From: an uncultured Nitrospiraceae bacterium
GTDB taxonomy: Bacteria > Nitrospirota > Nitrospiria > Nitrospirales > Nitrospiraceae
Assembly: GCA_963846575.1 (NCBI GenBank)
Contig: CAWJWJ010000002.1
Location: 2,240,001-2,304,000 of the forward strand
Length of the DNA stretch: 64,000 nt
Reading direction: 5' to 3'
Of the stretch, positions 1 through 16,900 are shown piece after piece (position 1 is the first letter of the stretch; each line of letters opens with the position of its first letter). A program made the translations under genes and the position numbers. The notes under the pieces are model-generated. The model worked only from the letters and a program-made list of their open reading frames with translations, had not been told where the DNA came from and ran no database searches.

Positions 1-465
1 TTGGCCTATCCCAGCGCCATGCAACGGGCCACCAAGACAGTGTTGCTCATTCCCGGCCACGACCTCACCAGCGACGGCATCGTGGTGCAGCTCAACGGCT
101 ATCTGGTTCAGCTCGAACATCCGAAACCGGGCGACTCCCTCATCGCCAAGGAAGACGTCATGCTCCAGGCGTCGGTGCGCACCTTGTCTGGCTCGCTCGT
201 GCGACCGCACAGCGATTGGGATTCGCGGAGGATTCAGATCTATGGCGAGCTCCTCATCGGAGGCCGCATCGTCGAGCGTCTTCAGATGTTCTATTCGGGA
301 GAACAAAGCCGGTTCGAGTCTCCCTTCTTCGTGCCGCTCCCGAAGGACGCACCGGACGGCATCACCTTGCGCGTCATCGCAGCCGACGGAGCCAACGGCA
401 ATTTCGGGATGGGATCGGCTCAGTATCCCGTCCTCTCTGAGCGGCTTCGTCCCAGGAAGAATTGA
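1..465 (+). CDS. Hypothetical protein, C-terminal part (5' truncated by window edge)
   Basis: Open frame from position 1 to TGA at 463-465 with gene-like codon usage; no family motif recognised. Confidence 0.6.
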   Translation: MAYPSAMQRATKTVLLIPGHDLTSDGIVVQLNGYLVQLEHPKPGDSLIAKEDVMLQASVRTLSGSLVRPHSDWDSRRIQIYGELLIGGRIVERLQMFYSGEQSRFESPFFVPLPKDAPDGITLRVIAADGANGNFGMGSAQYPVLSERLRPRKN

Positions 466-555
466 GTCACCGGGTGATATGGTGATGTCATGACCTAAGG
501 ACCGCCGGCCGGTACAGCCGGCCGGATCATTCAACTACCCGGGAACAGATTCTCC

Positions 556-2340
556 ATGGATCCAAAACAACGACAATTCTCCATCTGGTACATGTTCATC
601 GCGCTCTGGGTCTTGATGCTGATCCAGATGTTTCTTCCCTCCTTCTTCAATCCCACTGAAATTCCCTACAGCGAATTCAAAGAATCCGTCGCGGCCGGCA
701 GGGTGACGGAGATTTCCGTCTCGCCGCACATCATTCACGGGAAGATGAAGGACGACAAAAATTTCAATACCGTCCGCATCGAGGATCCCGATCTGGTCAA
801 GGATTTGGCCCAGGGTCAAGTCAAGGTGACGGGGGTTATCGAGAGCACCATTATCCGGGATCTGCTGTCGTGGATCGTCCCGATCGCTCTCTTCTTCGGC
901 GTCTGGTGGTTCCTCCTGCGCCGCATGGGGCAAAGCCAGGGCTTCATGACAGTCGGTCAGAGCAAAGCAAAGATTTATGTCGAAAAAGAAGTGAAAGTCC
1001 GCTTCGCCGATGTGGCCGGAGTCGACGAGGCCAAGCAGGAATTGGAAGAGATCATCGAATTCCTCAAGACACCTGAAAAGTTTCGCCGGCTGGGCGGGAA
1101 GATTCCGAAAGGCATCCTGCTCGTCGGACCGCCGGGGACCGGCAAGACGCTCCTTGCCAAGGCCGTGGCCGGCGAAGCGGCCGTACCGTTTTTTTCGATC
1201 AGCGGATCGGAATTCGTGGAGATGTTCGTCGGGGTCGGCGCGGCCCGGGTCCGCGACCTGTTCGAGCAGGCCAAGAGCAAGGCACCCTGCATCATCTTCC
1301 TCGACGAACTCGACGCGCTCGGAAAGGCCCGAGGGGTCGGCCCCATGGTCCACGAGGAACGCGAGCAAACCTTGAACCAGTTGCTGGTCGAGATGGATGG
1401 ATTCGATTCACGCGTGGGCGTCATTCTCGTCGCGGCCACCAACCGTCCGGAAATCCTCGATCCCGCGTTACTGCGGGCCGGGCGATTTGATCGCCAGGTC
1501 CTCGTGGACCGGCCGGACAAGATCGGACGGCTTGCCATTCTGAAGGTGCATGCCCGCAGCATCACGCTCGAGAATGAGGAAGACTTGAAAACCATCGCAG
1601 CCATGACCCCCGGCTTCGTCGGAGCCGACCTGGCCAATTTGCTCAACGAAGCGGCACTTCTGGCAGTCCGGGGCGGCAAGGACACCGTGGGTCTGGCCGA
1701 ACTGCAAGAAGCCGTAGAGCGGGTCATCGGCGGACTCGAAAAGAAAAACCGGGTCCTGAACAAAATGGAGAAGGCGCGCGTCGCGCACCACGAGGTCGGC
1801 CATGCGTTAGTCGCGATGTCCATTCCAGGCGGCGATGCCGTCCACAAAATCTCAATCATCCCGCGAGGTATTGCCGCGCTCGGGTATACCATGCAGCTCC
1901 CGACCGAAGATCGATTCCTCATGACCGTGTCCGAACTGAAGAACAAGATCGCCGTACTGCTTGGCGGGCGGGCGGCGGAAGACGTGATCTACGGAGAGGT
2001 TTCGACCGGCGCGCAGGACGATCTGCGCAAGGCCACCGACATTGCGAAGAGCATGGTCAAAACGTACGGCATGAGCGAGAAACTGGGCCAGGTGAGTCTG
2101 GAGCGGGATCGGCAATCCTTGTTTCTTCAGACCGGCCCCTCGCAGACTCCGGCCGACTACAGCGAACAGACATCGCGCGAAATCGATTGCGAGGTCCGGG
2201 AATTGATCGACGAACAATACGGGCAAGCGCGGGATCTCATCAAGACCCAGGAAGCCCTCCTTCGCAACGCCGCCCAGGTGCTGCTGGAGAAAGAAACGAT
2301 TACCGGGGAAGAACTTAAAGCATTAGCTGAGGGACGATGA
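556..2340 (+). CDS. ftsH: ATP-dependent zinc metalloprotease FtsH
   Basis: Two N-terminal TM segments, Walker A GPPGTGKT, Walker [32 protein letters not shown], Zn motif HEVGH. Confidence 0.97.
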
Positions 2341-3026
2341 CTCTGCCTGTCCGCATGGTGTTCAGCCTCTGCCTCATCTCCTCCGTCTCCCTGAGTCCGG
2401 CCTGGGCCCCTCCGGCCAAAGCCCAACATGGCCATCAGCATGACCCTTTACCGAACGTCACCGAGTATCTGGACCGGCTCGACCGACCGGAACGTGACCA
2501 GGATCAAAAACCGTCCCAGGTCATCGAGGCCCTGCGGCTGAAGCCCGGCATGAGCGTCGCCGACCTGGGGTCAGGATCGGGGTACTTCACCCGGCGGTTT
2601 GTCGACGCCGTCACCGATCAGGGGACCGTCTATGCCATCGACGTGGAGGCCAAAGCCCTGCAGCATATCGAACAACGCCTCCAGCGGCTCAACCGGCCCT
2701 ATCATGTCGAGCTCATTCTCGCCCCTTCCGACAATCCCATGCTCCCTCCCAGCTCGGTCGATCTGATCTTCATCTGCAACACCTATCATCATCTCGAGAA
2801 CCATCGGACCTACCTTCGACACCTGCGGTCCGCGCTCAAACCGGGCGGTCGGGTTGCGATCATCGACTTCTACCCCGACGAGCGATCAGGCGATCTCGGA
2901 TTCCCCAAGGTGCACCTCGCCACACCCGCCCGGGTGGTTGAGGAAATGAGCACCGCCGGCTTTGAGCCGACGATCGAACATGCCTTTCTGCCGAAACAAT
3001 ACTTCCTGGAATTCACGCCGCGATAA
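2337..3026 (+). CDS. Class I SAM-dependent methyltransferase with predicted signal peptide
   Basis: VADLGSGSGYF motif I, YAIDVE, DLIF..YHH, LKPGG; hydrophobic N-terminus ending PAWA; ATGA overlap with ftsH stop. Confidence 0.85.
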   Translation: MTLPVRMVFSLCLISSVSLSPAWAPPAKAQHGHQHDPLPNVTEYLDRLDRPERDQDQKPSQVIEALRLKPGMSVADLGSGSGYFTRRFVDAVTDQGTVYAIDVEAKALQHIEQRLQRLNRPYHVELILAPSDNPMLPPSSVDLIFICNTYHHLENHRTYLRHLRSALKPGGRVAIIDFYPDERSGDLGFPKVHLATPARVVEEMSTAGFEPTIEHAFLPKQYFLEFTPR

Positions 3027-3137
3027 GCCGCGCCTCACCATTCTTCACCTCAGAGATGCCCTCGCGCGATGGTCCGCCTCCGGCCGGACCCGGGGGAAGG
3101 CTTGCCCTTGCCCCGCACCCATGAGACACTGAAACCG

Positions 3138-4079
3138 ATGGTGCCTCCCACTTATCATGAACTTCGCTCCCGCCTGCAGATCGGGCTCGTACTCAATGCC
3201 GTGATCATACTCGCGGAGTTCGTCGGCGGGTTTCTGACCAACAGTATCGGACTGATTGGAGACGCCGGACACAATCTCGTCGATCAGGGCTCCCTGTTCC
3301 TCGCGCTGTACGCGCACGTGCTGACGGCGCGGCCGGCCACCGATGCGCGGACGTTCGGCTATCACCGGGCCGGCATCGTCGCCGCGTTCCTCAACTCGTT
3401 TCTCCTCCTGCTCACAGCCATCGGCATCACCTTCGTCAGCTTCGAACGCATCATGTCTCCCGTTCCGGTCCCCGGAGGATGGGTGATGCTGATCGCGCTG
3501 ATCAGCTTCGCCGCGAATCTGTCCGTCGCGCTCCTGCTTCAACATGGCGCGAAGGACGACCTGAATATCCGCAGCGCCTTCTGGCACATGCTGACGGACG
3601 CGTGGGTGTCCCTGGGCGTCGTCATCAGCGGAGGCGCCATTCTGCTGACGGGCTGGTCGATCTTCGATCCCCTTGTGAGCCTGCTGGTGGTGGCGGCCAT
3701 CGCCAGAGGCGCCTGGCCTCTCTTTAAGGAATCACTGGAAGTACTACTGGAATCGACGCCGCCCGGCGTCAGCCCCGCGCAGGTCGCCGCCACCGTCGAA
3801 TCCATCCCCGGCGTGAAGAACGTTCACGATCTCCACATCTGGGCGGTCGAGCCGCGGCTCATCATGATGACGACACATGTGCAGGTGGACGGCGGCGACA
3901 ACGCGCTGACGACCGAGCTGCTCCACACGATTCGGAACCGGATCGCAACGGATTTCGGCATCACCCACCTGACGATCCAGTTGGAGACGCAATGCTGCGA
4001 CCCGGAGGCCGTCCACTGCGACCTCAATCGTCTGCACCGTCAACATCCGCAGCGGGAAATCCTCCACAGCCATCACTAG
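3138..4079 (+). CDS. Cation diffusion facilitator (CzcD/ZitB-like Zn/Co/Cd transporter)
   Basis: SIGLIGDAGHNLVD, TFGYHR, NIRSAFWHMLTD, VHDLHIW, HLTIQLE motifs; ~6 TM segments; start may be 3069. Confidence 0.92.
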   Translation: MVPPTYHELRSRLQIGLVLNAVIILAEFVGGFLTNSIGLIGDAGHNLVDQGSLFLALYAHVLTARPATDARTFGYHRAGIVAAFLNSFLLLLTAIGITFVSFERIMSPVPVPGGWVMLIALISFAANLSVALLLQHGAKDDLNIRSAFWHMLTDAWVSLGVVISGGAILLTGWSIFDPLVSLLVVAAIARGAWPLFKESLEVLLESTPPGVSPAQVAATVESIPGVKNVHDLHIWAVEPRLIMMTTHVQVDGGDNALTTELLHTIRNRIATDFGITHLTIQLETQCCDPEAVHCDLNRLHRQHPQREILHSHH

Positions 4080-4104
4080 CCCGCAGGCGATCCTTGCGGA
4101 TACA

Positions 4105-5082
4105 ATGGCTCCCATGGTTCAGACAATCCCCGTTCCCTTCTACATCCTTTGCGGCTCCCTCGGCGCCGGCAAGACAACCTTGCTCATGCGCCTCCTCGAA
4201 TATTGGAATGCTCAGGGGCACAAAGTCGGGGTGCTCATGAACGAAGCGGGGGAAGTCAGCATTGATGGCCCGCGCGCGGGAACGATCGCCGAGCAGGTGC
4301 TCAACCTGGCCGGTGGCTGCATCTGCTGCGATACGAAAGACGACCTGGCGTGGAGCATCACGCAGCTCGTCCAGGATTATCAGTCCACCCTGATCGTGCT
4401 GGAATGCTCGGGCATGGCCGACCCGGCGGAGGTCGTCGATGCCGTGACCGACGCCTACGTGTCGCGGATTGCGAGGCTCGAAAGGATTCTGGCACTGCTG
4501 CACCCGGTCCCGCTTCCCGACTCCGGCATGGCAGAAATGGTGACGCGTAATGCCATTCGTTATGCCGACGACCTGATCCTCAACAAGCGAGATCTCTACA
4601 TCCCAGGACATTGGGAACAGTTCCGTGACACGATCACCCGGTACAACCCCTATGGTCGGCTATATGAAACGAACCACGCCCGGGTGGATATCCCGTCTGT
4701 GCTCGCGGCTCCCATGGTGCGATCGCGTCCGACCAACGTCGCATTCGAGAAAACAAGCGGGTCGGCTGCCACGCGCGACACTCGCGCCCCTGACCATCCC
4801 ATGGTCACCACGGTACGCTTCACGAAGCCGCTCGACCGCATCCGGTTCGTGGCTTGGACACAGTCACTACCCGAAGGACTCGAACGGGCGAAGGGGTTTT
4901 TTCGCTTTGTGCATGAACCGGAGCTGCAGGAGTTTCAGTTCTTCCATCCACGGACCAGCACCATCACCCCGGTGATGCTGCTCGATGAACCGGATCATGT
5001 CATCGTCTTAATCGGGCGCGACTTCGACCAGGAACTCTGCCGCAAGTCCCTCCTCGAGTGTCTCGCCGATTCCAACCGTTAG
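4105..5082 (+). CDS. COG0523/CobW-family G3E GTPase (metallochaperone)
   Basis: GSLGAGKTT, MNEAGE, GGCICC metal motif, ECSG, NKRD, C-terminal RAKG (CobW_C). Confidence 0.92.
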   Translation: MAPMVQTIPVPFYILCGSLGAGKTTLLMRLLEYWNAQGHKVGVLMNEAGEVSIDGPRAGTIAEQVLNLAGGCICCDTKDDLAWSITQLVQDYQSTLIVLECSGMADPAEVVDAVTDAYVSRIARLERILALLHPVPLPDSGMAEMVTRNAIRYADDLILNKRDLYIPGHWEQFRDTITRYNPYGRLYETNHARVDIPSVLAAPMVRSRPTNVAFEKTSGSAATRDTRAPDHPMVTTVRFTKPLDRIRFVAWTQSLPEGLERAKGFFRFVHEPELQEFQFFHPRTSTITPVMLLDEPDHVIVLIGRDFDQELCRKSLLECLADSNR

Positions 5083-5666
5083 GAAATAGATTCCGTAGAG
5101 GCCCGAGGAGCAGGCGCGTTCCCGATGTGATTCGGAAGCGGACGGAAGCGAGACCAGCGGAGAAGCAGCCAGGCTGCGCCCCCTCCAACCAAGCCTCCCA
5201 CGACCCAGCCGCCGATCACGTCAGTCAGGTAATGCGCCCCGATGTAGACACGGGACAGCCCGATCGCCACCACCAGCGGCCAGGTGAACCAACCCGAACG
5301 GGGATAGAGGATCTGGAAAAAGACCGCAGCTGCAGCCGTGTTGGCCGCGTGATTCGAAGGGAAGGAGAACGCTCCCCCGCAGCCCAGCAACTTCTGCACT
5401 TCCGACAGAGTCAGGCAAGGGCGCGGACGTTGAACTAAACCTTTAAGTTGAGTTCCCAGCGCATCGGTACTGCCGATGACGCCCGCCAATGTCGCCAAGC
5501 CGATCACACCCTCCCGCCAGTTGCGCCAAACCCAATAACTTGCGAGCAGCGCGCCGGGATAGTACAGGTTCCCCGGCTTTGCCAGCTCGATCATGATCCA
5601 ATCGAGCGTCGCGGACCGACCGGCAAGATTGTTGATGGCATGAAAAAGGATCTCGTCCAGGTCCAT
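5079..5666 (-). CDS. PAP2-family membrane phosphatase (undecaprenyl-PP phosphatase-like)
   Basis: K..V.RPRP, SFPSNH, SRVYIGAHYLTD motifs. Confidence 0.9.
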   Translation of the reverse strand: MDLDEILFHAINNLAGRSATLDWIMIELAKPGNLYYPGALLASYWVWRNWREGVIGLATLAGVIGSTDALGTQLKGLVQRPRPCLTLSEVQKLLGCGGAFSFPSNHAANTAAAAVFFQILYPRSGWFTWPLVVAIGLSRVYIGAHYLTDVIGGWVVGGLVGGGAAWLLLRWSRFRPLPNHIGNAPAPRASTESIS

Positions 5667-5925
5667 ACCGGCGACGATAACGGGTCGGGCGGGATCAGTC
5701 AAATAGTTCGCACAGACTCAGAAGGGGAAAAATTCGGGTTCCTATTCCAACGCGGTCCGTTCATCCTCGCTCCTGAATCGACACACGCTCTACAAGAGGC
5801 CGCCGAATGCGGCAACCCCGGAATGAGAAGCCTCGATGCCCGCCACCCCGCATCACACCGTCACACTCATTTTCACTGCCGATCCTGCACTGCAGCAATG
5901 ACGGAGGCCGCCTCACAGGATTCAT

Positions 5926-6372
5926 CTATTGCGACCGGAAGTGAATGCGTACGGTGAGTGCGCCGTCGACCGGTTCATCACCGTTGAGTTGCGGGTCAAA
6001 GGTCCATTTGTTCAACGCAATCATGCCGGCGACCGTGAGCTCACGATGTTTGGCCGGCTCCAACACCACCACCGTGACCGTCGCATCCTTTGAGACGAGC
6101 AGGCGCGCCTTCATCCAGTCATCGAGCGGCTTGCCATCCAATGACGAAGGAACCGCCGGCCATGGCGTCGACTTCGGCACCGGACCCAGCTGCTGATCCT
6201 TATTCAGCGGCAGACCGTGGACATGCACTTCCGGCAGTTCGATGATGTCGGCATCCAACGCATGGTCCGCTTCATGCGTCGCTTCGTCTCCAGTCACGGC
6301 ATGCGCCGCAAACGGAACACAGAACATCACCGCCGTGGTCATACTCACCATCCATCGCATAGCCTTCACCAT
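5926..6372 (-). CDS. Small exported protein with TonB C-terminal-like domain
   Basis: Signal peptide ending AHA; C-terminal ..ALNKWTFDPQLNGDEPVDGALTVRIHF resembles TonB_C; SD GGAGG upstream; directly downstream of TBDT. Confidence 0.7.
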   Translation of the reverse strand: MVKAMRWMVSMTTAVMFCVPFAAHAVTGDEATHEADHALDADIIELPEVHVHGLPLNKDQQLGPVPKSTPWPAVPSSLDGKPLDDWMKARLLVSKDATVTVVVLEPAKHRELTVAGMIALNKWTFDPQLNGDEPVDGALTVRIHFRSQ

Positions 6373-6392
6373 CGTCCTCCATCCTCTGACGC

Positions 6393-6510
6393 CTGCTCAA
6401 ACGGGCCAGCCAGCATGGCTGCAAGCAACGCACGCCCCGGAGGCATACCCCCGGGGGTACGTTGGGGATTCGTGCGCGCCGAGCACGCCGGTGGTGACCC
6501 GCTTGAGCAG
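6393..6510. repeat. ~118-bp palindromic intergenic element (REP/MITE-like)
   Basis: Terminal inverted repeats CTGCTCAAACGGG (6393-6405) and CCCGCTTGAGCAG (6498-6510), 12/13 match; central hairpin TACCCCCGGGGGTA. Confidence 0.65.
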
Positions 6511-6514
6511 CCGG

Positions 6515-8962
6515 TTAAAAAAACCATTGGCCGCGCAGAAAAAACGACCGTGGCATCCCCGCATGGGCGACGCCCAGCCCGATGCTCCCCTCCCCCTGGT
6601 TGATGAAATATTTCTGGTCCAACAGGTTGATGACGTCGAATCCCAGGAGAAACTTCTGCCCTTCCCAGGGCAGCGGGAACACGTGGACAATCGAGAGATT
6701 GTAAATCGTGTAAGAGGGGCTATGGCTGGAGTTGGTCTTCGCCTCCTCGTTCTCCGCCGTTCGCAGGCCGGAGGCAAACAGCATCTGGCCGGTGAACGTC
6801 GTGCGTTCCTTGAAACGGTAACTCACGACAGCCGAACTCGTCAGCGTCTGCATATGGTCGCAAAACACTCCGCCCCGCGAGTTGATGTCCGAAATCTCCT
6901 TCGCTTCGAGGAGAAAATGGCCCGACTGCAACCCATAGCCCTTGCATTGCCCCCAGGCCACATTGCCGCGCGCCGTCAGGTTGTCGGCCAACTGCAGTTT
7001 CAGCGCCCCGTCGATGCCGCGTTGCCACCCGCGGTCGAACGCAAAGTAGTTTAACAGCGGCGTGGTGCCGAATTGCCCGGCATCCGACAGGAAGTTGCTG
7101 AGCTTGTACCATCCCGTCAATTGCAGCGTCGCATAGCGATTCAGCGCATGATAGCTGCCCACCTCGAAATAATGCGCCCGTTCGGCCCGGACTGTATTGT
7201 TGGTCAGGTCTTCCGGTTCCGCCCTCGTGCCCACCGTGTTCAGCTTGGCAAACGAGATCGCTTCGAGATTCGGGGGCGTGAACAGTCGTCCATAAAACAC
7301 ATGGAAGACGTTGGACTGGTTGTACTTGTAGCTCGCTCCCAGACGCGGGCTGACCTGTCCTTCATCCCGCAGATATTGGACGACATCGGCCCGCAACCCG
7401 AGGTTGAAGGTCCACTGGTCGTTCGGGCTCCATTGGTCTTGAATCCAGAACTCCTGGCGATAGCCGATCTGGCGGTTGTCGGCGTTGAGACCGAGCAGGT
7501 CACCTGTGGGATTCCCCGCGCCGTCGTCCGCGAAGGTAAAGAGTCGCGTCTTATTGACGGCCTGCGTCCGATCGAGTTGAAACCCCGTCTTGATGAGGTG
7601 CTGCTTGCTGTGCACATAGGTGTAATCGAGCCGCAAGCCGGTCGAATAGGCCCTGCGATCCTGATCGGAGGCCGAAAACGGCTCGGAAGGATCCGCCGTA
7701 TAGGCCAGAAAGTTGAGCGGGTCCGTTTTGAAGATGGCCCGAGTATGGCGGATATACCCCGCCAGGCTGAAAAAATTGTTGGCGTTGACGTCATGCCTCC
7801 ACACCATGTGGCCGTACTGATTATTTTCTTTTTGGAACTCATCGATGGCCTGGGAGGCCACGGGAGTAAAGCCGGGGCGGCTCGCCTGCAGGAGCGGCAG
7901 CAGCTGCCCGCTCGGATCCAGTTCGAGGCCGGGCCTGGTGGGGATTTGATACTTGGCCACCGAATTCAAGAACAGCCAGGTGAAGTTATTCTTGTTGTCG
8001 TGCTGATAATCCCCGCGAATGAAGGTTTGATTGCGTTCGCTCTGTCCATGAAAAATCGAGTGCCCCAGGGTCGGCGGCTCGATGCCACGGTTCGTCGTCG
8101 TATAGCTATTCAAAATGTAAAAGCGGAACTTTTCGCCGATCGTCCCGCCATACTCCAGGGACGGGTTGAGGGTCCGGTTCGACCCGCCCATCGTTTGAAT
8201 CGATCCGAAGGCCGGTTTCGTCCCGCTTTTGGTCGTGATATCCAGGACAGCCGCCGCCTTGTTTCCGTACTGCGCTTCCAAGCCCCCGAGAATGATGTCG
8301 GCCCGTTCCCAGGCGCGCGGACTGATGACATCGGAGAAGGTGGAGGACACGGTGTCCGGAATCGGAACCCCGTCGATCCGCAGTTGCAGGTTCGCATGGT
8401 CCTGACGGATATGCACCTGCTTGAGCGAGCCGTACACCGCGCTGGGGATCGTCAGGAGCACGTCATGAAGCTCGACATTGTTGCCGCGCGGCAGAAGTTC
8501 AATTTCCTTTCGGCTCAGCGAGTAGGTTTCGCTCGAGGCCTTGTACTGGATGGGCGGCAGCGAGGTCACGACCTCAAGCGCGATCTCATTGGTCGTCGAG
8601 AGCGTCAGCGTGACGGGCGGGATCGGGTCCCTGCCCACCTTGATGATGGTATATTCGCTTCGCAAAGACTCCTGCACGGCGCTGACCGAATACGTGCCTT
8701 CGTGAACGACCTCCACGACAAATTCTCCCGCGTCGTCCGCCACCGCCGAACCGACCAGGCTCCCTTCCTGATCCTTCACCTCTACCCTGGCCTGCGGGAC
8801 ACGCCGGAGATCCTGACTTTGTACCGTCCCCGAAATCGTGTGTACGTGGCTCACCGACGGTGCCGGGCCCTCCGCCGCCTGGGCCGGCAGGGTCCCGAGC
8901 AAGCCACTGACCAATAACAAACCCACCCACACCCGACCTATGGTGCTGACTGACAAACCCAT
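6515..8962 (-). CDS. TonB-dependent outer-membrane receptor with N-terminal carboxypeptidase-regulatory-like domain
   Basis: Signal peptide ..AQA; ISGTVQS..VP.ARVEV..G.Y.V domain; plug LQLRIDGVP..AQYG..AAVLDITTK; beta-strand pattern; NLLDQKY; terminal Phe; SD GGGAGG before ATG 8962. Confidence 0.93.
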   Translation of the reverse strand: MGLSVSTIGRVWVGLLLVSGLLGTLPAQAAEGPAPSVSHVHTISGTVQSQDLRRVPQARVEVKDQEGSLVGSAVADDAGEFVVEVVHEGTYSVSAVQESLRSEYTIIKVGRDPIPPVTLTLSTTNEIALEVVTSLPPIQYKASSETYSLSRKEIELLPRGNNVELHDVLLTIPSAVYGSLKQVHIRQDHANLQLRIDGVPIPDTVSSTFSDVISPRAWERADIILGGLEAQYGNKAAAVLDITTKSGTKPAFGSIQTMGGSNRTLNPSLEYGGTIGEKFRFYILNSYTTTNRGIEPPTLGHSIFHGQSERNQTFIRGDYQHDNKNNFTWLFLNSVAKYQIPTRPGLELDPSGQLLPLLQASRPGFTPVASQAIDEFQKENNQYGHMVWRHDVNANNFFSLAGYIRHTRAIFKTDPLNFLAYTADPSEPFSASDQDRRAYSTGLRLDYTYVHSKQHLIKTGFQLDRTQAVNKTRLFTFADDGAGNPTGDLLGLNADNRQIGYRQEFWIQDQWSPNDQWTFNLGLRADVVQYLRDEGQVSPRLGASYKYNQSNVFHVFYGRLFTPPNLEAISFAKLNTVGTRAEPEDLTNNTVRAERAHYFEVGSYHALNRYATLQLTGWYKLSNFLSDAGQFGTTPLLNYFAFDRGWQRGIDGALKLQLADNLTARGNVAWGQCKGYGLQSGHFLLEAKEISDINSRGGVFCDHMQTLTSSAVVSYRFKERTTFTGQMLFASGLRTAENEEAKTNSSHSPSYTIYNLSIVHVFPLPWEGQKFLLGFDVINLLDQKYFINQGEGSIGLGVAHAGMPRSFFLRGQWFF

Positions 8963-9055
8963 GCGAACCTCCCCCAATGAATCTGCTTCCATGCAGAGCC
9001 GTGCCCGGGTCATTTGCCCGGGCAACCTCCAGTAAACATGAACGTCACGTTGAGG

Positions 9056-9376
9056 TTAGGAACGGGGAGGCGCGCGCGAAGTCCTAAGCGTACCGAGCGA
9101 TTGTGAGACAAGGATCGATTGATAGGCGGCGGACGATGGGGCTTCTGCGAGGAGGGAACAGGTCGCCGGTGCGTCCCCGGCCAGCGAGTGGCCCGTGTGG
9201 TACTGCACCCACTGACAGAGGTCGGTATCCGAATGTTCGTGGCCGTCGTGATCGGCTGCCGCCAGATCGTGATGAATCTGCAACGCCGCCGCGAACGGCA
9301 CCATGGCCAGCAACAAGCACGCGAGGAGCAGGGCGACCGCTCGTCTTGAATTGACATGGGGATGACGGGAAGACAT
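9056..9376 (-). CDS. DUF2946/CruR-like leader protein with C-terminal RAPP arrest motif
   Basis: N-terminal hydrophobic helix, His-rich segment HHDLAAADHDGHEH, C-terminus SRAPPRS*; ends 93 nt upstream of the TBDT. Confidence 0.8.
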   Translation of the reverse strand: MSSRHPHVNSRRAVALLLACLLLAMVPFAAALQIHHDLAAADHDGHEHSDTDLCQWVQYHTGHSLAGDAPATCSLLAEAPSSAAYQSILVSQSLGTLRTSRAPPRS

Positions 9377-9410
9377 CAATGGCCAGATAGTTCCAGTTTT
9401 TCAACCGTGG

Positions 9411-9439
9411 GTTGTAACAAAGCCGTGAAGTGAAAGCAA
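9411..9439 (-). promoter_or_regulatory. Candidate sigma70 promoter for leader/TBDT operon
   Basis: TTGCTT-17 bp-TACAAC with TG at extended -10; imperfect -10. Confidence 0.3.
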
Positions 9440-9465
9440 GAACGAGCCGTCCGCTGCTCACGCTC

Positions 9466-9494
9466 TGGACATTCCACAATCTATTCGCTATGGT
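9466..9494 (+). promoter_or_regulatory. Candidate sigma70 promoter for DAHP synthase
   Basis: TGGACA-17 bp-TATGGT. Confidence 0.4.
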
Positions 9495-9549
9495 AGAGGC
9501 CACTCTTCAATCACGGAATGAGCAACCTGCCGTTCCTAAAGGGACCACC

Positions 9550-10608
9550 ATGACCAGGCCGATCGACAACCAGCACGTTATTGAAATCAAGCCGCTCCCC
9601 TCGCCTCGCGATGTCAAGACCCGTCTACCGATCACCGACGACGTGGCGGAGCTGGTATTTCAGACGAGGCAATCGATTCGGAACATCCTGCATGGCCGTG
9701 ATATGGAACGGCTCATCGTGATCGTCGGCCCCTGCTCGATCCACGATGCCGACGCCGCCTACGAGTATGCCGAACGGCTCAGGCCGGTCGCCGAAGCAGT
9801 CCGTGAGAAACTTCTGGTCGTGATGCGCACCTATTTCGAAAAGCCCCGGACCACCGTGGGCTGGAAGGGATTGATCAACGACCCCCATCTCGACGGCACC
9901 TGTGAGATTGCCCAGGGTATCCAGCTGGCCCGGACGATCCTGTTGAACATCAATGGGAAAGGGCTTCCCTGCGCGACGGAATTGCTCGACCCGGTCACGC
10001 CGCAGTTCATTGCGGATCTCCTGAGTTGGACGGCGATCGGGGCACGCACCACCGAGAGTCAGATTCATCGCGAAATGGCGAGCGGCCTGTCGATGCCGGT
10101 CGGGTTCAAGAACGGCACCGAAGGGAGCCTACAGGTCGCGATCAATGCCATGATCACCAGCCGCAGCCCGCACCACTTTGTCGGAGTCAACGCCGACGGC
10201 ATGACCTCCATCATCAAGACCACCGGCAATCCTGACCATCACATCGTGCTTCGTGGCGGCGGCGGTCGCACCAACTATAGCGTCGAAGACATTGCCCGCG
10301 CGGAAGGCGCCGTCGCCACCGAAGGCCTCGCACGCGGCGTCATGGTGGATTGTTCCCACGACAACTCGGGAAAGAACCATCAACGTCAGGTTGAAGTCGC
10401 CGGAGAAGTCCTTAAACAATTCCGGCAAGGCCGCCGGTCGATCATGGGCGTCATGCTTGAAAGCCACTTACAAGGCGGTAGACAGAGTTGGGATCCGAGC
10501 AAGGCTCTCACCTACGGGATGTCGATCACCGACTCCTGCCTGGCCTGGGACGATACTGAAGCCCTCCTCCACGGCATGGCCGAGGCGCTCGCCACGCGTC
10601 CCGTCTAG
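9550..10608 (+). CDS. 3-deoxy-7-phosphoheptulonate (DAHP) synthase, class I alpha (AroF/G/H family)
   Basis: GPCSIHD, RTYFEKPRTTVGWKG, IGARTTESQIHR, GFKNGT, DCSHDNS, YGMSITDSC. Confidence 0.96.
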   Translation: MTRPIDNQHVIEIKPLPSPRDVKTRLPITDDVAELVFQTRQSIRNILHGRDMERLIVIVGPCSIHDADAAYEYAERLRPVAEAVREKLLVVMRTYFEKPRTTVGWKGLINDPHLDGTCEIAQGIQLARTILLNINGKGLPCATELLDPVTPQFIADLLSWTAIGARTTESQIHREMASGLSMPVGFKNGTEGSLQVAINAMITSRSPHHFVGVNADGMTSIIKTTGNPDHHIVLRGGGGRTNYSVEDIARAEGAVATEGLARGVMVDCSHDNSGKNHQRQVEVAGEVLKQFRQGRRSIMGVMLESHLQGGRQSWDPSKALTYGMSITDSCLAWDDTEALLHGMAEALATRPV

Positions 10609-10940
10609 CAGATTTGAAATACGTTGCTCCGACGGCGGGCGCATCGTCCGAAGACAGGGGTCCAAACCTGCCCGCCTGTTTCACGATCCTGCAGAGTTCC
10701 CGACGGCGAGAACATCACGACGTTCCCTGAAGGTCTCCGAGAGCTAGCCTTCCAGCAGCAGCCTCTTCACTCCGTCCCCAATCGCGTTCAGGGGCGCCAG
10801 GCCCGTGTCGAAACGTCTGAGCAATCGTCCGTCCGTGGTACGTCGGCTTCCAGGCTATGCAGCCGCAGTATACTGCCCGCTGAATTGACCCATGGGGCCA
10901 AAGCTCGGCGGTCTGTGCCGATCTTTTCACCGTTCGCCTC

Positions 10941-13900
10941 TTGACCAGTTCGTCGTCTCCACTGAAGGGAATCTCGACATTGAAGATCCGCAACAGATTA
11001 CGTGAAGGCCGTCTCCGTGTGACCGATGTTCTGAGGAGGAGCACTCTGTCACAGTCGGATGTCGGCCACGAACCTCCGTTGCGCTCGGAGCTGTTCAGCG
11101 CCGGGCAGATGCACCAACACGGTAAGACGCTAGCGGGATCGCACGAGGTGAGTGCGGATCACGAACCGGACCAGTTGCTCAGCCGGTTGGCGGAGAATGA
11201 AGCGGTGCTGATGGAAGTGCGCGGCCTGGTGTCGGATGCCATGAAGGGCAGTCGTCGCATCACCCCCGCCGGTGAATGGTTATTGGATAATTTCTATTTG
11301 ATCGAGGAACAGATCCGCATGGCCAAGCGGCACTTGCCCAAGGGCTACAGCCGTGAGCTGCCTCGTCTCGCCAAGGGCCCTTCCACCGGCCTGCCACGGG
11401 TCTATGACATCGCTCTGGAAATCATCTCCCACGGGGATGGTCGAGTCGATCCGGAAAGTCTCAGCAGTTTTGTGGTGGCGTACCAAACCGTCACAGCCCT
11501 GAAGCTGGGCGAGTTATGGGCCATTCCCATCATGATCCGCCTGGCATTAATCGAAAATCTGCGACGCGCCGGCGCACGCATCGCGAGCGACCGAGTGCAT
11601 CGCAATCGCGCCTACGAATGGGCCGGCCAGATGATGGAGACGGCAGAGAAGGATCCCAAGAGTCTCATCCTGGTCATCGCAGACATGGCACGATCGAACC
11701 CGCCCATGGTGAGCGCCTTCGTGGCGGAACTTGCCAGGCGGCTTCAAGGGCAAAGTGCGGCACTGGCGTTGCCGCTCACCTGGATCGAGCAACGGTTGTC
11801 CGAGTCGGGACTCACCATCGAACATCTGGTGCAATCGGAGACGCAACAGCAGGCGATCGACCAGGTCTCCATGAGCAACAGTATCGGCAGCCTCAGGTTC
11901 CTGGCCGCGATGGACTGGCGCGAATTTGTCGAGGCCCACAGCGTCGTGGAGCAGACTCTGCATGCAGATCCGGCAGGGGTGTATAGCCGGATGGACTTTG
12001 CGACACGGGACCGCTACCGCCATGCGGTGGAGAGACTGTCCAAACGTAGTCCTCTCTCGGAACCTGAAGTCGCGACACGGGCCGTTCGGCTCGCCGAACG
12101 CCGGGCCGGTGAAACGGGAACGGACCATCGCGACGCCCACGTCGGCTTCTATCTGGTCGATAAGGGGCAGCCTCAGTTGGAACAAGCAGTCGGCATGCGC
12201 CGCTCGTTATTCGACTGGATCGGGAAATGGAGCGGCCGAGGCGCGACACCGGTCTATCTCGGTTCCATCCTGCTCCTGACGGCCGCGTTGACAGGCGGCT
12301 TCCTTGCCCTTGCGGCTGCCGATGGCTGGAGTGCCTGGCGGCTTGCCTTGATGGGATTCCTTTCGGCGTTGGCCTCCAGTCAGCTCGCGGTGACCCTGGT
12401 GAACTGGCTCGCCACGGCCCTCGTGACACCGAACCCGCTTCCGCGAATGGATTTCACCGAGGGTCTTCCTCCTGAATTACGAACCCTGGTGGTCGTCCCC
12501 ACCCTCCTTCAGAATGCACAGGGCGTCGAAGACCTCATCGAGGCGCTCGAAGTCCGGTTCCTCGCCAACCGGGACAGACACCTCCACTTTGCACTCCTCA
12601 CTGACCTTCCCGATGCTGCGCATGAAACTGTTGCAGAAGATGACCAGGTGGTGCGGCTCGTCCAGACACGCATCGAAGCGCTGAATGACAAATACAACAG
12701 CGAGCACGGCGAGACGTTCTTCCTCTTTCATCGACCACGTCGCTGGAATGCCCAAGAGCGGGCGTGGATGGGGTATGAGCGGAAACGTGGCAAACTCGGG
12801 GACCTGAACGCGCTGCTCCGGGGCGGTTCAGAGGATCGCTTCTCGATGGTGATCGGAAAGACGGCAATACTGTCCTCCGTCAAATACGTGATCACGCTCG
12901 ACACGGATACGCAACTGCCTCGCGATTCCGCTCGCCAGTTTGTGGCAGCGATGGCACACCCTCTCAATCGTCCACGGTATGACCTCAAGGCCCAGCGAGT
13001 CACCGAAGGGTATGGCATCCTTCAACCTCGCGTGGCCGTCAGCTTACCCGGCACCAACCGATCAAGGTACGCGCGTCTCAATGCCAGCGAACCGGGCATT
13101 GACCCTTATACCCGCGCCGTTTCGGATGTGTATCAGGACGTCTTTGGAGAAGGGTCTTTCATCGGCAAGGGCATTTATGAGGTCGAGGCCTTCGAACGGG
13201 CGCTCCACAACCGGTTTCCGGAAAATCGAATCCTCAGCCACGATCTGCTCGAAGGTTCCTATGCGCGAGCCGGGTTCTTGAGCGACGTCCAGCTGTATGA
13301 GGAATATCCAGCCCGGTACCGCTCGGATGTCGCCCGGCGGTATCGCTGGATTCGCGGAGACTGGCAGATCGCACGATGGGCATTTCCGCAAGTACCGGGG
13401 GCTAACGGGCGCACCCAAAACAATCCGCTCTCAACACTCGCCCGTTGGAAGATCTTTGACAACCTGCGCCGAAGTCTCGTGCCTGCGGCGATGCTGTCCC
13501 TGTTCCTGCTGGGCTGGACCGTTCTGTCTCCCGTCTGGCTCTGGAGCCTCTCGGCGCTTTCGCTCCTCCTGATTGCTCCACTGATGGCCGCTTTCGGGGA
13601 TCTGTTTCGTAAGCCAGAAGATGTGCGGCTCGACCAGCACCTGACGTCGACGGCTCGGGCCACGACGCAACAGCTTACGCACGCCATGTTGACCCTCATG
13701 TGCCTGCCCTATGAGGCCTACTACAGCCTGGGGGCAATCCTCCGGACAGCCGGCCGCATCTGGCTCACCCGCACGCGTCTATTGGAATGGAGCCCATCAA
13801 GCACAGTGCACGGAACCGCAACGGGCCTGATCGGAGAGTACCGATCGATGTGGGTCTCCCCAGGCCTTGCCCTGGGGACCGCAGCCTATCTCCTGCTCTC

Positions 13901-16900
13901 GCGCCCGGACGCACTGCTGGTAGCAGGACCGGTGTTGATCCTCTGGGGGACGTCTCCCCTGTTCACCTGGTGGATCAGTCGGCCGATCGCCCGGTACGAG
14001 GCGAAGCTCACGGCGGACCACACCCTGTTCCTCCGCAAGATGGCCCGCAAGACCTGGGGATTTTTTGAGACCTATGTCGGCCCGGATGACCACTGGCTTC
14101 CGCCGGATAATTACCAGGAGCACCCCGTCCCGCGAGTGGCACACCGCACGTCGCCGACGAATATGGGCCTGGCGCTGCTCGCGAACTTGTCTGCCTACGA
14201 TTTCGGCTACCTGTCAACAGGACGCCTCCTGGAACGCACGAAACAGGCTTTCGACAGCATGGCGAGATTGGAACGGTATCGAGGCCACTTCTACAACTGG
14301 TACGACACGCAGTCCTTAAAACCCCTCTTGCCCATGTACATTTCGTCCGTGGACAGTGGGAACCTGGCCGGACACGTCCTGACGTTGCGGTCGGGGCTGC
14401 TCACCATCCCGGATCATGCGATCCTCTCTCATCGCGTCTTTGACGGCCTTCGCGACACCCTGACGATCTGGAACGATGCTCTCGGAGAGGCGGGGGACCT
14501 CCCACTCGGCAGGCTGAGTACGGAGTTGACCGCTGCATCCCTGGACAGCTCGGCCACGCTCACGGCGGCGCACCGGTCTCTGGATGGCCTGGCGACGCTC
14601 GCGGCTGAAGCCGCGTCTCGTCTCGATACCACTGCGGACGGGAATGCACGACGATGGGCCCATGCCTTTGAGCAACAGTGCCGTGGCGCGCTCACTGATC
14701 TGACGGTGCTTGCGCCCTGGATCGGTCTTCCGGACTCGCCTCGCACGCTCAGTTCCTTCCCGGAATTAGACCAGATACCGACACTCCGGAGACTGACCGA
14801 ACTGGAAAGCGAATGGCTGCCGGCAATTGAGCAACGACTCGGTCCCGACACCACGGAGCCGGATCGGGACTGGCTGGCCGGACTTCAACGGCATCTCAAC
14901 GACGCGGGCCAGCGCGCCGGTGAACGCATCACCTCGCTTAATCACCTGGCCTGGCGATCGGGCCAGTTCGCCCGGATGGAGTTTGACTTCCTGTTCGACG
15001 GGACACGGTTCCTCCTGTCTATCGGGTACAGCGTCACAGACCGACGGCGCGATGTCAGCTACTACGACCTTCTGGCATCGGAAGCACGATTGTGCAGCTT
15101 CGTCGCCATTGCGCAGGGACAATTGCCGCAGGAGAGCTGGTTTGCCCTGGGGCGCCTGCTCACGACCACGGGTGGAGATCCCATTCTCATGTCCTGGAGC
15201 GGTTCGATGTTCGAATACTTGATGCCGCTCCTGGTCATGCCGACCTACCAGCACACGCTGCTGGATCAGACCTATCAGGCTGCGGTGGCAAGACAGATCG
15301 AATATGGACGGGAGCGGGGCATACCCTGGGGCGTATCCGAATCCGGCTATAACATGGTCGACGTCCATTTGAATTACCAGTACCGGGCGTTTGGCGTGCC
15401 CGGCCTGGGCCTCAAGCGGGGGCTGGGTGAGGAGTTGGTCATCACGCCCTATGCCACGGCCCTCGCCCTCATGGTCGCGCCCGAAGAAGCCTGCCTGAAC
15501 CTGCAACGGCTCGCCGCGGAAGGAGCTGAAGGCCCATTCGGATTATATGAAGCGATCGACTACACGCCGTCTCGCCTTCCACGCGGCCAATCGAGTGCCG
15601 TGGTTCGTTCGTATATGGCCCACCACGTAGGGATGAGTTTTCTTTCCCTAGCCTACGTGATCCTGGATCGTCCGATGCAACGGCGCTTCGAAGCCGAACC
15701 GTTGTTTCAGGCGACCATGCTGTTATTGCAGGAACGGATTCCAAAGGCCACCGCGTTCTATGCTCACAGCGCCGAGCTCTCAGACCTCCGCCCGGCATCG
15801 GGTGTTTCGGAAACGCCGGTTCGCATCCTGACTACGCCGAACACGCCGGTTCCCGAAGTGCAGCTCCTGTCCAACGGCCGATATCACGTCATGGTCACCA
15901 ATACGGGTGGCGGGTACAGCCGCTGGAAGGACCTGGCGGTCACGCGATGGCGTGAAGACAGCACCTGCGACAACTGGGGGACGTTCTGTTACATCCGCGA
16001 TGTCGAAAGCGGAGAGTTCTGGTCGATGGCCTATCAGCCGACGCTCAAACCGTCGAAAACGTACGAGGTCATCTTTTCAGAAGGGCGTGCGGAATATCGA
16101 CGCCACGACCATGAGATCGAGACGCACGCCGAGATCGTGGTGTCCCCTGAAGATGATATTGAACTGCGCCGGATCCGCCTCACGAACTGCTCCGGAACCA
16201 GGCGTACCATCGACCTGACCAGCTATGCGGAGGTCCTGCTGGCATTGCCGGCGGCCGACGCCCTGCACCCGGCATTCAGCAACCTCTTTGTGCAGACTGA
16301 AATCGTCCCTGAGCGTCAGGCGATTCTCGCCACACGCCGCCCCCGTTCACTCAACGAGCAGGCCCCCTGGGCATTTCACCTCATGGCGGTACGTGGCCCC
16401 CACAGCGGAGAAATCTCTTACGAGACGGACCGCATGCAGTTCATCGGCCGCGCCCGCACGCTTGCCTCCCCGCAAGCCATGGACCGTTCCGCGCTCTCGG
16501 GAAGCCAGGGCTCCGTGCTGGATCCGGTGGTGTCCATCCGTTGCCAGATCGTCCTTGATCCGGAAGAGTCCGTCACGGTGGATCTCGTATCCGGCATTGG
16601 CGAGACCCGGGACATCTGTCTGCGCCTGGTCGATAAATATCAGGACCGGCATCTCGCCGATCGCGTCTTCGAGTTGGCCTGGACACACAGCCAGGTGGTG
16701 TTGCGGCAACTGAACGCCACCGAAGCGGACGCGCAACTCTACGGACGTCTGGCCGGCTCGATTCTCTATGCCAATGCCTCCTTGCGGGCCGAGGCGTCAC
16801 TGCTCAGCAAAAACCGCCGCGGACAGTCCGGCCTCTGGGGTTATGCCATATCAGGCGATCTGCCGATCGTACTGCTCCAGATTGGAGACCCCTCGAACAT

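Follow-up and report, generated by a model that had tools for sequence, protein, structure and literature searches.

A conserved RAPP-ending leader peptide ahead of a TonB-dependent transporter in Nitrospiraceae: a candidate zinc-responsive arrest switch

The window analysed here is a stretch of 64,000 nt from an uncultured Nitrospiraceae bacterium (GCA_963846575.1, contig CAWJWJ010000002.1, positions 2,240,001 to 2,304,000). Read from 9376 to 9056 on the minus strand, it encodes a leader ORF (P0001) of 106 residues, identified by translation, homologues and codon-position pattern; the plus strand of the same interval is interrupted by stops. An earlier, sequence-only reading had described a 106 aa ORF ending in SRAPPRS 93 nt ahead of a TonB-dependent transporter (TBDT), and the minus strand translation confirms this, together with the His/Cys stretch it had quoted. 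Its hydrophobic N-terminal segment was also recovered (peak mean hydropathy of the h-region 2.7), as was the lack of CxxC in P0001. Residues 1–31 (9284–9376, minus strand) form a predicted export signal, judged from sequence, conservation and hydropathy, with a basic n-region, a hydrophobic h-region and a P-F-A-x-A end conserved across 84 loci (P27 96%, F28 92%, A29 91%, A31 96%). This is followed on the same strand by a candidate metal site, H35-H36...D42-x-D44-G-H46-x-H48...D52-x-C54-x-W56...H60 (9197–9274), by a linker of fixed length and free sequence that is C-rich on the coding strand and a possible Rho loading site (9077–9196), and by the RAPP codons (9064–9076).

The TBDT gene (6515–8962, minus strand) encodes 815 aa with CarboxypepD_reg, plug and barrel domains by domain search. 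Its ATG lies at 8962, 93 nt from the leader stop, and its Shine-Dalgarno (SD) sequence, GGGGGAGG, was placed at 8968–8975 (minus strand) from sequence and pairing analysis. An orthologous TBDT is found directly 3′ of the leader in 30/30 loci. Neither single-sequence nor profile searches returned a characterised or solved relative of this transporter, and the Atlas search led to generic TBDT clusters. The second gene of the operon (5926–6372, minus strand) encodes an exported 148 aa protein with conserved His and a weak TonB_C domain, which sits behind the TBDT in most relatives and carries an invariant T-H-x-x-D-H, a V-H-V-H-G stretch and a TonB_C-like end. We take the V-H-V-H-G stretch to resemble a TonB box, and judging by its sequence the protein could be a metal-handling TonB partner. 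A PAP2 phosphatase gene (5079–5702, minus strand), missing from some relatives, is the probable third member. Convergent with this operon, on the plus strand (3069–5082), are genes for a ZitB-like CDF protein (3069–4079) and a COG0523 protein (4105–5082), which are often-kept neighbours. The sequence-only reading had used both as a pointer to Zn/Ni/Co. As they belong to a separate, convergent transcript they are not members of the operon, and the argument from them to these metals is unsupported as it was made. A 2913 aa ORF at 10941–19682 (plus strand) is presumably similar to cyclic beta-1,2-glucan synthase.

A DAHP synthase gene diverges upstream of the leader. The predicted leader promoter, read from the sequence, comprises a −35 hexamer TTGCTT (9434–9439) and an extended −10, TG-N-TACAAC (9411–9416), both on the minus strand, and no Zur-type box lies near it in this window. 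A scan with a promoter consensus did not call the −35 hexamer; a TTGACA/TTGCAW-like hexamer with a 17–18 nt spacer recurs 5′ of the homologues when judged by eye. No conserved palindrome was found in 30 promoter regions of the leader's own family. A shared word, AAAGTCCA, was considered as an element of the leader promoter and rejected, as it fits the divergent DAHP-synthase promoter instead. In several homologues (L012, L013, L018 and others) the predicted −10 is just ~6–11 nt ahead of the leader start codon, which suggests a leaderless or near-leaderless mRNA at those loci.

Protein searches gave 544 matches to the leader at E≤0.001, and among the matches listed those with an organism name are Nitrospira or Nitrospiraceae. 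A profile built from 51 homologues yielded 91 representatives at 50% clustering. When 251 genomes of the phylum were searched, the leader profile matched all 39 genomes of its own family (Nitrospiraceae), 5 of the 17 in a second family and none in other families; a broader profile matched 124/151 genomes of the order, with paralogues counted in. Among 84 dereplicated loci, variation falls mainly on third codon positions, both in the core (0.13/0.09/0.50 for positions 1/2/3) and in the RAPP motif (0.01/0.03/0.57), where the residues are 94–100% conserved and variation is synonymous. The linker contains in-frame stops in 0/84 loci, against 46/84 and 62/84 in the other two frames. On these comparisons the leader ORF is a real, conserved gene under selection for coding. 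The leader protein matched no family in Pfam or NCBIfam. Its AlphaFold model is weak (pLDDT 64, pTM 0.33), with helices at residues 8–42 and 50–66 and a disordered linker, and no fold match to it was found in the PDB. A search of Rfam with positions 1–12000 of the window returned no riboswitch and two chance-level eukaryotic matches. The leader is probably regulatory. We have high confidence that it is an arrest-type regulator of the TBDT, and reasonable confidence that it responds to a metal.

The residues of the candidate metal site are 96–100% conserved in the 84 loci. In 42 distant members H36 and H48 are invariant and D52, C54 and W56 reach at least 90%. Of the "C-x5-H" motif proposed earlier, the Cys holds and the His does not, H60 being replaced in 13/60 distant members; the motif is better described as C-x-W-x-(not C), within a conserved set of H36, H48, D52, C54 and W56. 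This arrangement occurs in every motif-bearing member, and among 208 proteins of the leader family CxWxC is found in none and any CxxC in four. R[AG]PP lies within the last 14 residues of 175/208 proteins, the remainder being largely fragments or frameshifted calls, and the genomic copies (n = 148) divide into 127 RAPP, 15 RGPP and 6 RPPP. In all 170 homologues that have both motifs, Cys54 and Arg101 are separated by 46 (160) or 47 (10) residues, a spacing whose conservation had been put forward as a check. A Cys54–RAPP distance that varies by no more than one residue, although the linker sequence is free, is the signature of CruR (Bp2923, DUF2946/PF11162) of Bordetella pertussis, which has 45 residues between its CxxC and RAPP, and argues that the site is coupled to arrest. 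Measured from the P site, Cys54 lies at 49 residues and the His cluster at 55–68. Taking lengths for the ribosome tunnel and the SecYEG channel that are partly general knowledge, these distances would fit an encounter with zinc either outside the tunnel, in the cytoplasm, or where SecYEG opens into the periplasm. Periplasmic sensing, as first proposed, is one of these two possible readings, since Cys54 lies about as far from the arrest site as the cytoplasm-sensing CxxC of CruR, and since the signal is dispensable for CruR and required for CutF.

The RAPP codons double as a predicted anti-SD. In the predicted fold the gap is bridged by pairing of the Pro-Pro codons CCUCCCC (9070–9064) with the TBDT SD (inverted repeat I1), enclosing the 93 nt intergenic region (8963–9055, minus strand) within the anti-SD/SD helix (fold z = −3.29, 0/200 shuffles as stable). 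Comparison across loci used 148 leader–gene pairs, with 13 more left out that had no downstream frame within 230 nt; 119 of the pairs lead to a TBDT, giving 65 distinct loci after dereplication. In these 65, RAPP codons pair with their own SD at −14.15 kcal/mol, compared with −12.74 ± 0.30 kcal/mol for permuted pairs (z −4.7, a value overstated by the kinship of the loci), whereas eight control windows gave z between −0.7 and +2.1. When the ribosome-covered 3′ end was removed, the cost of opening the start region changed by −5.7 kcal/mol, against −2.0 kcal/mol for a control segment, and the real segment exceeded the control in 34 of the first 40 of the 65 loci. In whole-segment folds the SD is paired mainly with the ribosome-covered segment in 20/30 loci, and with the footprint blocked it was clearly freed in just 8/30, usually taking another partner. 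Such stalled-state folds permitted pairing across the ribosome and were replaced by folds of the downstream portion only. In these, the opening cost falls from 20.7 to 9.0 kcal/mol in this window and by a mean of 7.2 kcal/mol over 30 loci, with a drop of more than 2 in 28/30. The natural codons fall in the top fifth of synonymous recodings at 21/30 loci and do no better than the recodings at 9/30. With longer arms, matched and mismatched pairs differed weakly (−21.6 vs −19.7, sd 5.4). The same pairing trend is present in 11/15 loci of the porin group described below, with matched changes visible in both arms. Moreover, the first Pro codon is CCT in 44/65 loci; in this genome CCT encodes 14% of all prolines and 22% of those that come first in Pro-Pro pairs. 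Across the loci, then, the RAPP codons are complementary to the TBDT SD and the two change in step, and because the arms are predicted to pair and co-vary, a ribosome stalled at RAPP would be expected to free the start site.

Two arrangements elsewhere in the family separate the leader from its usual distance to the next gene. In four close homologues (L037, L057, L067, L093) the gene pair that follows a leader subfamily, a His_kinase (PF06580) with a response regulator, is ~560–620 nt away, with no open frame bridging the gap to the kinase, a distance too great for SD coupling. At L038:3449-4405 (G159) an IS1595-family transposase gene separates the leader from its porin-ZnuABC operon and so interrupts the coupling naturally.

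A six-frame scan, judged by eye, recovered five other RAPP/RGPP leaders in this genome (G000:C1:1199299-1199604, C1:1204563-1204928, C1:1213625-1213960, C1:1008514-1008915 and C2:1141720-1142292). Three have H...C-x-W-x-C and stand ahead of BNR-repeat genes, a PqqU-like TBDT pair and a TPR gene that has a P-type ATPase nearby; one with RGPP precedes a siderophore-type TBDT, and one that is His-rich and Cys-poor precedes an efflux operon of the CzcCBA type. A profile of four CxWxC RAPP leaders from the same order matched the leader family with a probability of 95.6% (E 1.1e-8). The alignment places C54 and W56 over CxW and RAPP over RAPP, and the motif-to-RAPP spacing in the CxWxC leaders is 45–46. 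From this alignment, and the lack of CxWxC in the family, the leader can be read as a CxxxC-type leader minus its second Cys, plus His/Asp. The HMM check against DUF2946 that had been suggested came out negative for the leader itself: PF11162 did not match P0001 at E≤1. Searched against 51 homologues it gave 18 weak matches (best E 0.0023), and against 30 homologues one at E≤0.03, whose 16.8 bits fall under the curated cut-off of 23.7 bits. With matches this weak, the leader would work like a DUF2946 leader but is not filed as one. The original suggestion of an arrest-type RAPP leader, linked to a TBDT and akin to CruR/CutF, is supported.

The likely metal was approached through the genes behind the leader in 56 regions around the matches, which were picked for taxonomic spread before their neighbours were known. 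Behind the core leader lies either a TBDT or a BBP2-type porin, the latter with ZnuA, AztA and AztB-like genes after it. The latter arrangement, a porin with ZnuA/AztAB-type ABC genes, accounts for 17/148 leader–gene pairs and occurs in other families of the order. Among the ZnuA-type sequences listed, 19/19 have His at the three aligned ligand positions (one of the 19 is an unlinked copy in this genome), and the best PDB matches of this binding protein are zinc-uptake SBPs. A tri-His ligand set in such a protein is of the zinc type. Ten one-Cys paralogues have COG0523 and/or WD40 genes within the first two genes, and four Cys-free paralogues precede COG0523. Cys-free, RGPP-ending paralogues were seen at L080, L085–L088, L090 and L042:1672-1986, mostly ahead of COG0523 genes, with H-A-W-L-E-W or H-A-W-L-D-H where others have C-x-W. 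COG0523 clustered with WD40 has been tied to zinc limitation in the part of PMC2770081 that deals with it. Two-Cys leaders lead other TBDTs, barrels, AhpC-TSA and unclassified exported proteins at 30 loci, and neither ZnuA nor COG0523 stood directly behind one among the 30 listed. By analogy with the CruR contexts described in PMC9426467, these targets may be copper genes.

A distinct Fur-family clade also bears on the metal. It occurs in 17/62 genomes of the leader's own family and 49/62 of the second family, and in 0/21 and 0/5 of two others; the idea that Nitrospirales wholly lack Zur was rejected on these counts. We call the regulator Zur-like from its genomic context, as in NCBIfam the Fur/PerR models score better than Zur and PDB matches give a mixed order. 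No orthologue was found in this genome; judged by score and context, its three Fur-family genes are two that resemble Fur and one that resembles PerR. Ahead of 29/30 of the Zur-like regulator genes stands a TGCAA-N5-TTGCA palindrome (≤1 mismatch), against a background of 0.5% in 3000 windows of this genome and 25/445 windows of the loci in question, a count that takes in the true sites. Its geometry is that of ATGCAACNNNGTTGCAT, itself a prediction, ahead of znuABC-zur in Desulfovibrio (PMC545781, in its passage on this site). Outside the leader's own family the box stands before 20/20 leaders in genomes with the regulator and 0/6 in genomes without it. The 20 boxed leaders comprise 12 porin-ABC loci, 6 with the orthologous TBDT and 2 others, and in 18/20 the box is 1–7 nt ahead of a TTGAC hexamer. 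One genome (G311) has box, zur, leader and TBDT in one run, and in several others the regulator gene overlaps the start of a COG0523-type leader. The TBDT leader of the own family has no box in any of 36 loci, 9 of them in regulator-bearing genomes. At L075 (G317) the Zur-like gene is followed within 4 kb by three leaders, a TBDT-type copy with a COG0523-type copy on either side. In the second family (L245–L247, L253, L256, L260–L272) what usually comes after the Zur-like gene is a membrane protein of 155–185 aa that resembles MerC-family genes. Control of the operon by Zur in relatives is no proof of zinc sensing by the leader itself.

Taken together, the ZnuABC-type, COG0523-WD40 and Zur-type-box contexts bear out the earlier view that the leader is tied to a metal other than copper. 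They narrow the Zn/Ni/Co of that view to zinc. Zinc is the best-supported metal and the likely ligand, as judged from the operons of relatives and the Zur-type box.

In the switch that we propose, a ribosome would arrest at RAPP while its P site holds the first Pro, by analogy with CruR, and its footprint would cover the anti-SD and open the TBDT start, as in CutF. Importer translation would be kept on while zinc is scarce. Zinc would be captured by the nascent chain at its His/Asp/Cys cluster, the two predicted helices would fold around the His loop and the chain would be pulled free. Once the stall was released, the anti-SD/SD helix would re-form and the operon would be shut; Rho may also load on the C-rich linker after release. 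Zinc-driven folding releases an arrest peptide in an ADR1a-SecM construct, as outlined in PMC4571824. The sign, in which zinc shuts the operon, is drawn from the targets being uptake and starvation genes. We lean towards zinc acting with this sign, the stall keeping the importer on and zinc releasing it. What sequence comparison establishes is selection on coding, the fixed motif–RAPP spacing, the place before the TBDT, the covariation, and linkage to zinc uptake and the Zur-type box; the explanation that we prefer for the whole, with only modest confidence, is control of a TBDT importer by a zinc-released RAPP stall, in which arrest, zinc binding and release are predicted.

The same arrest-and-release switch might instead answer to Ni, Co, Mn or Cu. 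His/Asp-rich sites are not specific for zinc, Cluster A-I binding proteins also hold Mn or Fe, the regulator is not a formal Zur match, and the text of PMC9973294 on His-only CutF-like leaders links these to Ni/Co. We nevertheless consider another metal unlikely, given that three separate contexts (the tri-His ZnuA-type ABC genes, COG0523-WD40 and the Zur-type box) favour zinc and that the two-Cys paralogues lead a different gene set of AhpC-TSA, other TBDTs and barrels.

It is similarly improbable that the switch acts chiefly through Rho-dependent termination, in the manner of CruR, or that the sign is CutF-like with metal inducing the stall, the SD helix being secondary in either case. For termination, the C/G ratio is 1.64 in the leader tail and 0.91 in the TBDT gene (119 loci), fourfold sites are 65% pyrimidine in the linker against 45% in the TBDT, a rho gene is present, and a scan of the 93 nt gap found no terminator-like site; the Pro, Ser and Leu codons of the linker, however, raise its C content by themselves. 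The export signal, which CutF needs, is conserved and would suit the reversed sign, but with a metal-induced stall the uptake genes would be switched on when metal is plentiful, the reverse of how ZnuABC/COG0523 operons work. The anti-SD/SD covariation is moreover specific, which tells against this reading.

A leader that monitors protein export in the manner of SecM or ApdP, or merely couples translation, with the His cluster forming a secreted zinc-binding peptide and not a sensor, is less probable still. A conserved export signal with RAPP is the anatomy of Sec monitors as laid out in the relevant sections of PMC12992588, and in many relatives the Zur-like regulator alone could give zinc control. 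Yet the Cys54–RAPP distance is fixed within one residue over a linker of free sequence, the genes 3′ of the leader are metal genes and not sec genes, and the leader is kept in genomes that have no such regulator. That the ORF has no function as a gene, for which one could cite the absence of a clear SD of its own and of any Pfam or NCBIfam family, is scarcely credible beside its codon-position pattern, its lack of in-frame stops and its occurrence in 39/39 genomes of its family.

The preferred reading, a zinc-released stall, admits a further and more tentative extension, which we think possible and somewhat doubtful: a natural zinc-sensing arrest peptide has replaced Zur as the main importer switch. 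An ancestral operon would have been under both a Zur-like repressor and the leader, the repressor being not seen in 45/62 Nitrospiraceae and in this genome. The change of Cys to Gln and the added His/Asp in a CxWxC copper-type site would then represent a switch from copper to zinc within one leader superfamily. If true, this would explain the control of zinc uptake in nitrite-oxidising bacteria without a recognisable Zur. It would also name a candidate family of zinc TBDTs, one without a characterised relative. The system makes a good test case: its motif is sharp, its spacer does not vary, an RNA switch is predicted, and one-Cys and two-Cys paralogues in one genome allow specificity to be compared.

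The novelty that the sequence-only reading had seen in a different metal specificity was overstated, as His-only Ni/Co leaders appear in the sections of PMC9973294 on CutF-like clusters and rows of the present family in the source data of PMC12992588. Already in print are the CruR/CutF class, the non-copper (His-only Ni/Co) variants proposed in 2023 and the family rows in the 2025 source data. In the literature consulted, the characterised metal-sensing arrest peptides, CruR and CutF, both sense copper. The literature searched, which covered openly available papers and part of the supplements, contained no zinc-sensing RAPP leader and nothing on the function of the leader family.

SecM, ApdA and ApdP are reportedly monitors of Sec export that precede sec genes and have no conserved metal site, and SecM is said to be wired through an SD-masking helix. 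The leader has a RAPP-type arrest motif like theirs, and a stalled ribosome is likewise expected to expose the SD of the next gene. RAPP/RGPP uORFs ahead of TBDTs across Gram-negative bacteria are described in the corresponding part of Fujiwara et al. (PMC12992588). In the source table of its Fig 4B, DLCQW occurs in 22 rows, of which 21 are the leader family, each before a TonB-dependent receptor; zinc has 0 occurrences in the main text, and the passages on RAPP uORFs contain neither the leader family nor an SD helix nor Zur. DUF2946 has been tied to copper in the pertinent text of 10.1101/072470, and the gene list of a Caulobacter Zur study places a DUF2946 gene at the head of a Zur-activated efflux operon (PMC4176598).

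Of the known systems, CruR, as portrayed in the core passages of PMC9426467, shares with the present leader an export signal, a RAPP end, a place ahead of a TBDT, a metal motif ~45–48 residues before the C-terminal RAPP and a C>G stretch in the coding region. Its arrest at RAPP, in which the first Pro occupies the P site, was demonstrated by toeprint in the section of PMC12992588 devoted to it, and its sign, in which metal relieves the stall and uptake goes off, is the one predicted here. It differs in having CxxC and copper-type contexts, where the present leader has one Cys with His/Asp and zinc-type contexts, and in a gap of 162 nt with Rho termination, where here a 93 nt gap is closed by a predicted anti-SD/SD helix. 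CutF of Rhodobacter capsulatus and the CutF-like clusters (PMC9973294; 10.1101/2025.02.05.636593), so far as these accounts describe them, have in common with it a Sec signal, a Cys/His site, a Pro-rich end and an SD-masking stem-loop. The leader falls within the CutF-like filters (Ozturk 2023) with its 106 aa, RAPP plus two residues and 93 nt gap. In alignment its C-x-W-x-x corresponds to the CxWxC (CxxxC-type) motif of this genome's paralogues, and an SD-masking stem-loop in reach of the stalled ribosome is predicted and co-varies. In CutF, however, copper causes the stall and a detoxifying oxidase is turned on, whereas the present leader precedes uptake genes; and the anti-SD of CutF lies in an intergenic stem-loop, whereas here it would lie inside the RAPP codons. 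The His-only CutF-like clusters 14 and 17, ahead of HupE/UreJ, have been proposed to sense a non-copper metal (Ni/Co) in the passage of PMC9973294 that treats them. The proposed switch would thus combine the sign of CruR, in which metal relieves the stall, with the SD-masking helix of CutF and SecM.
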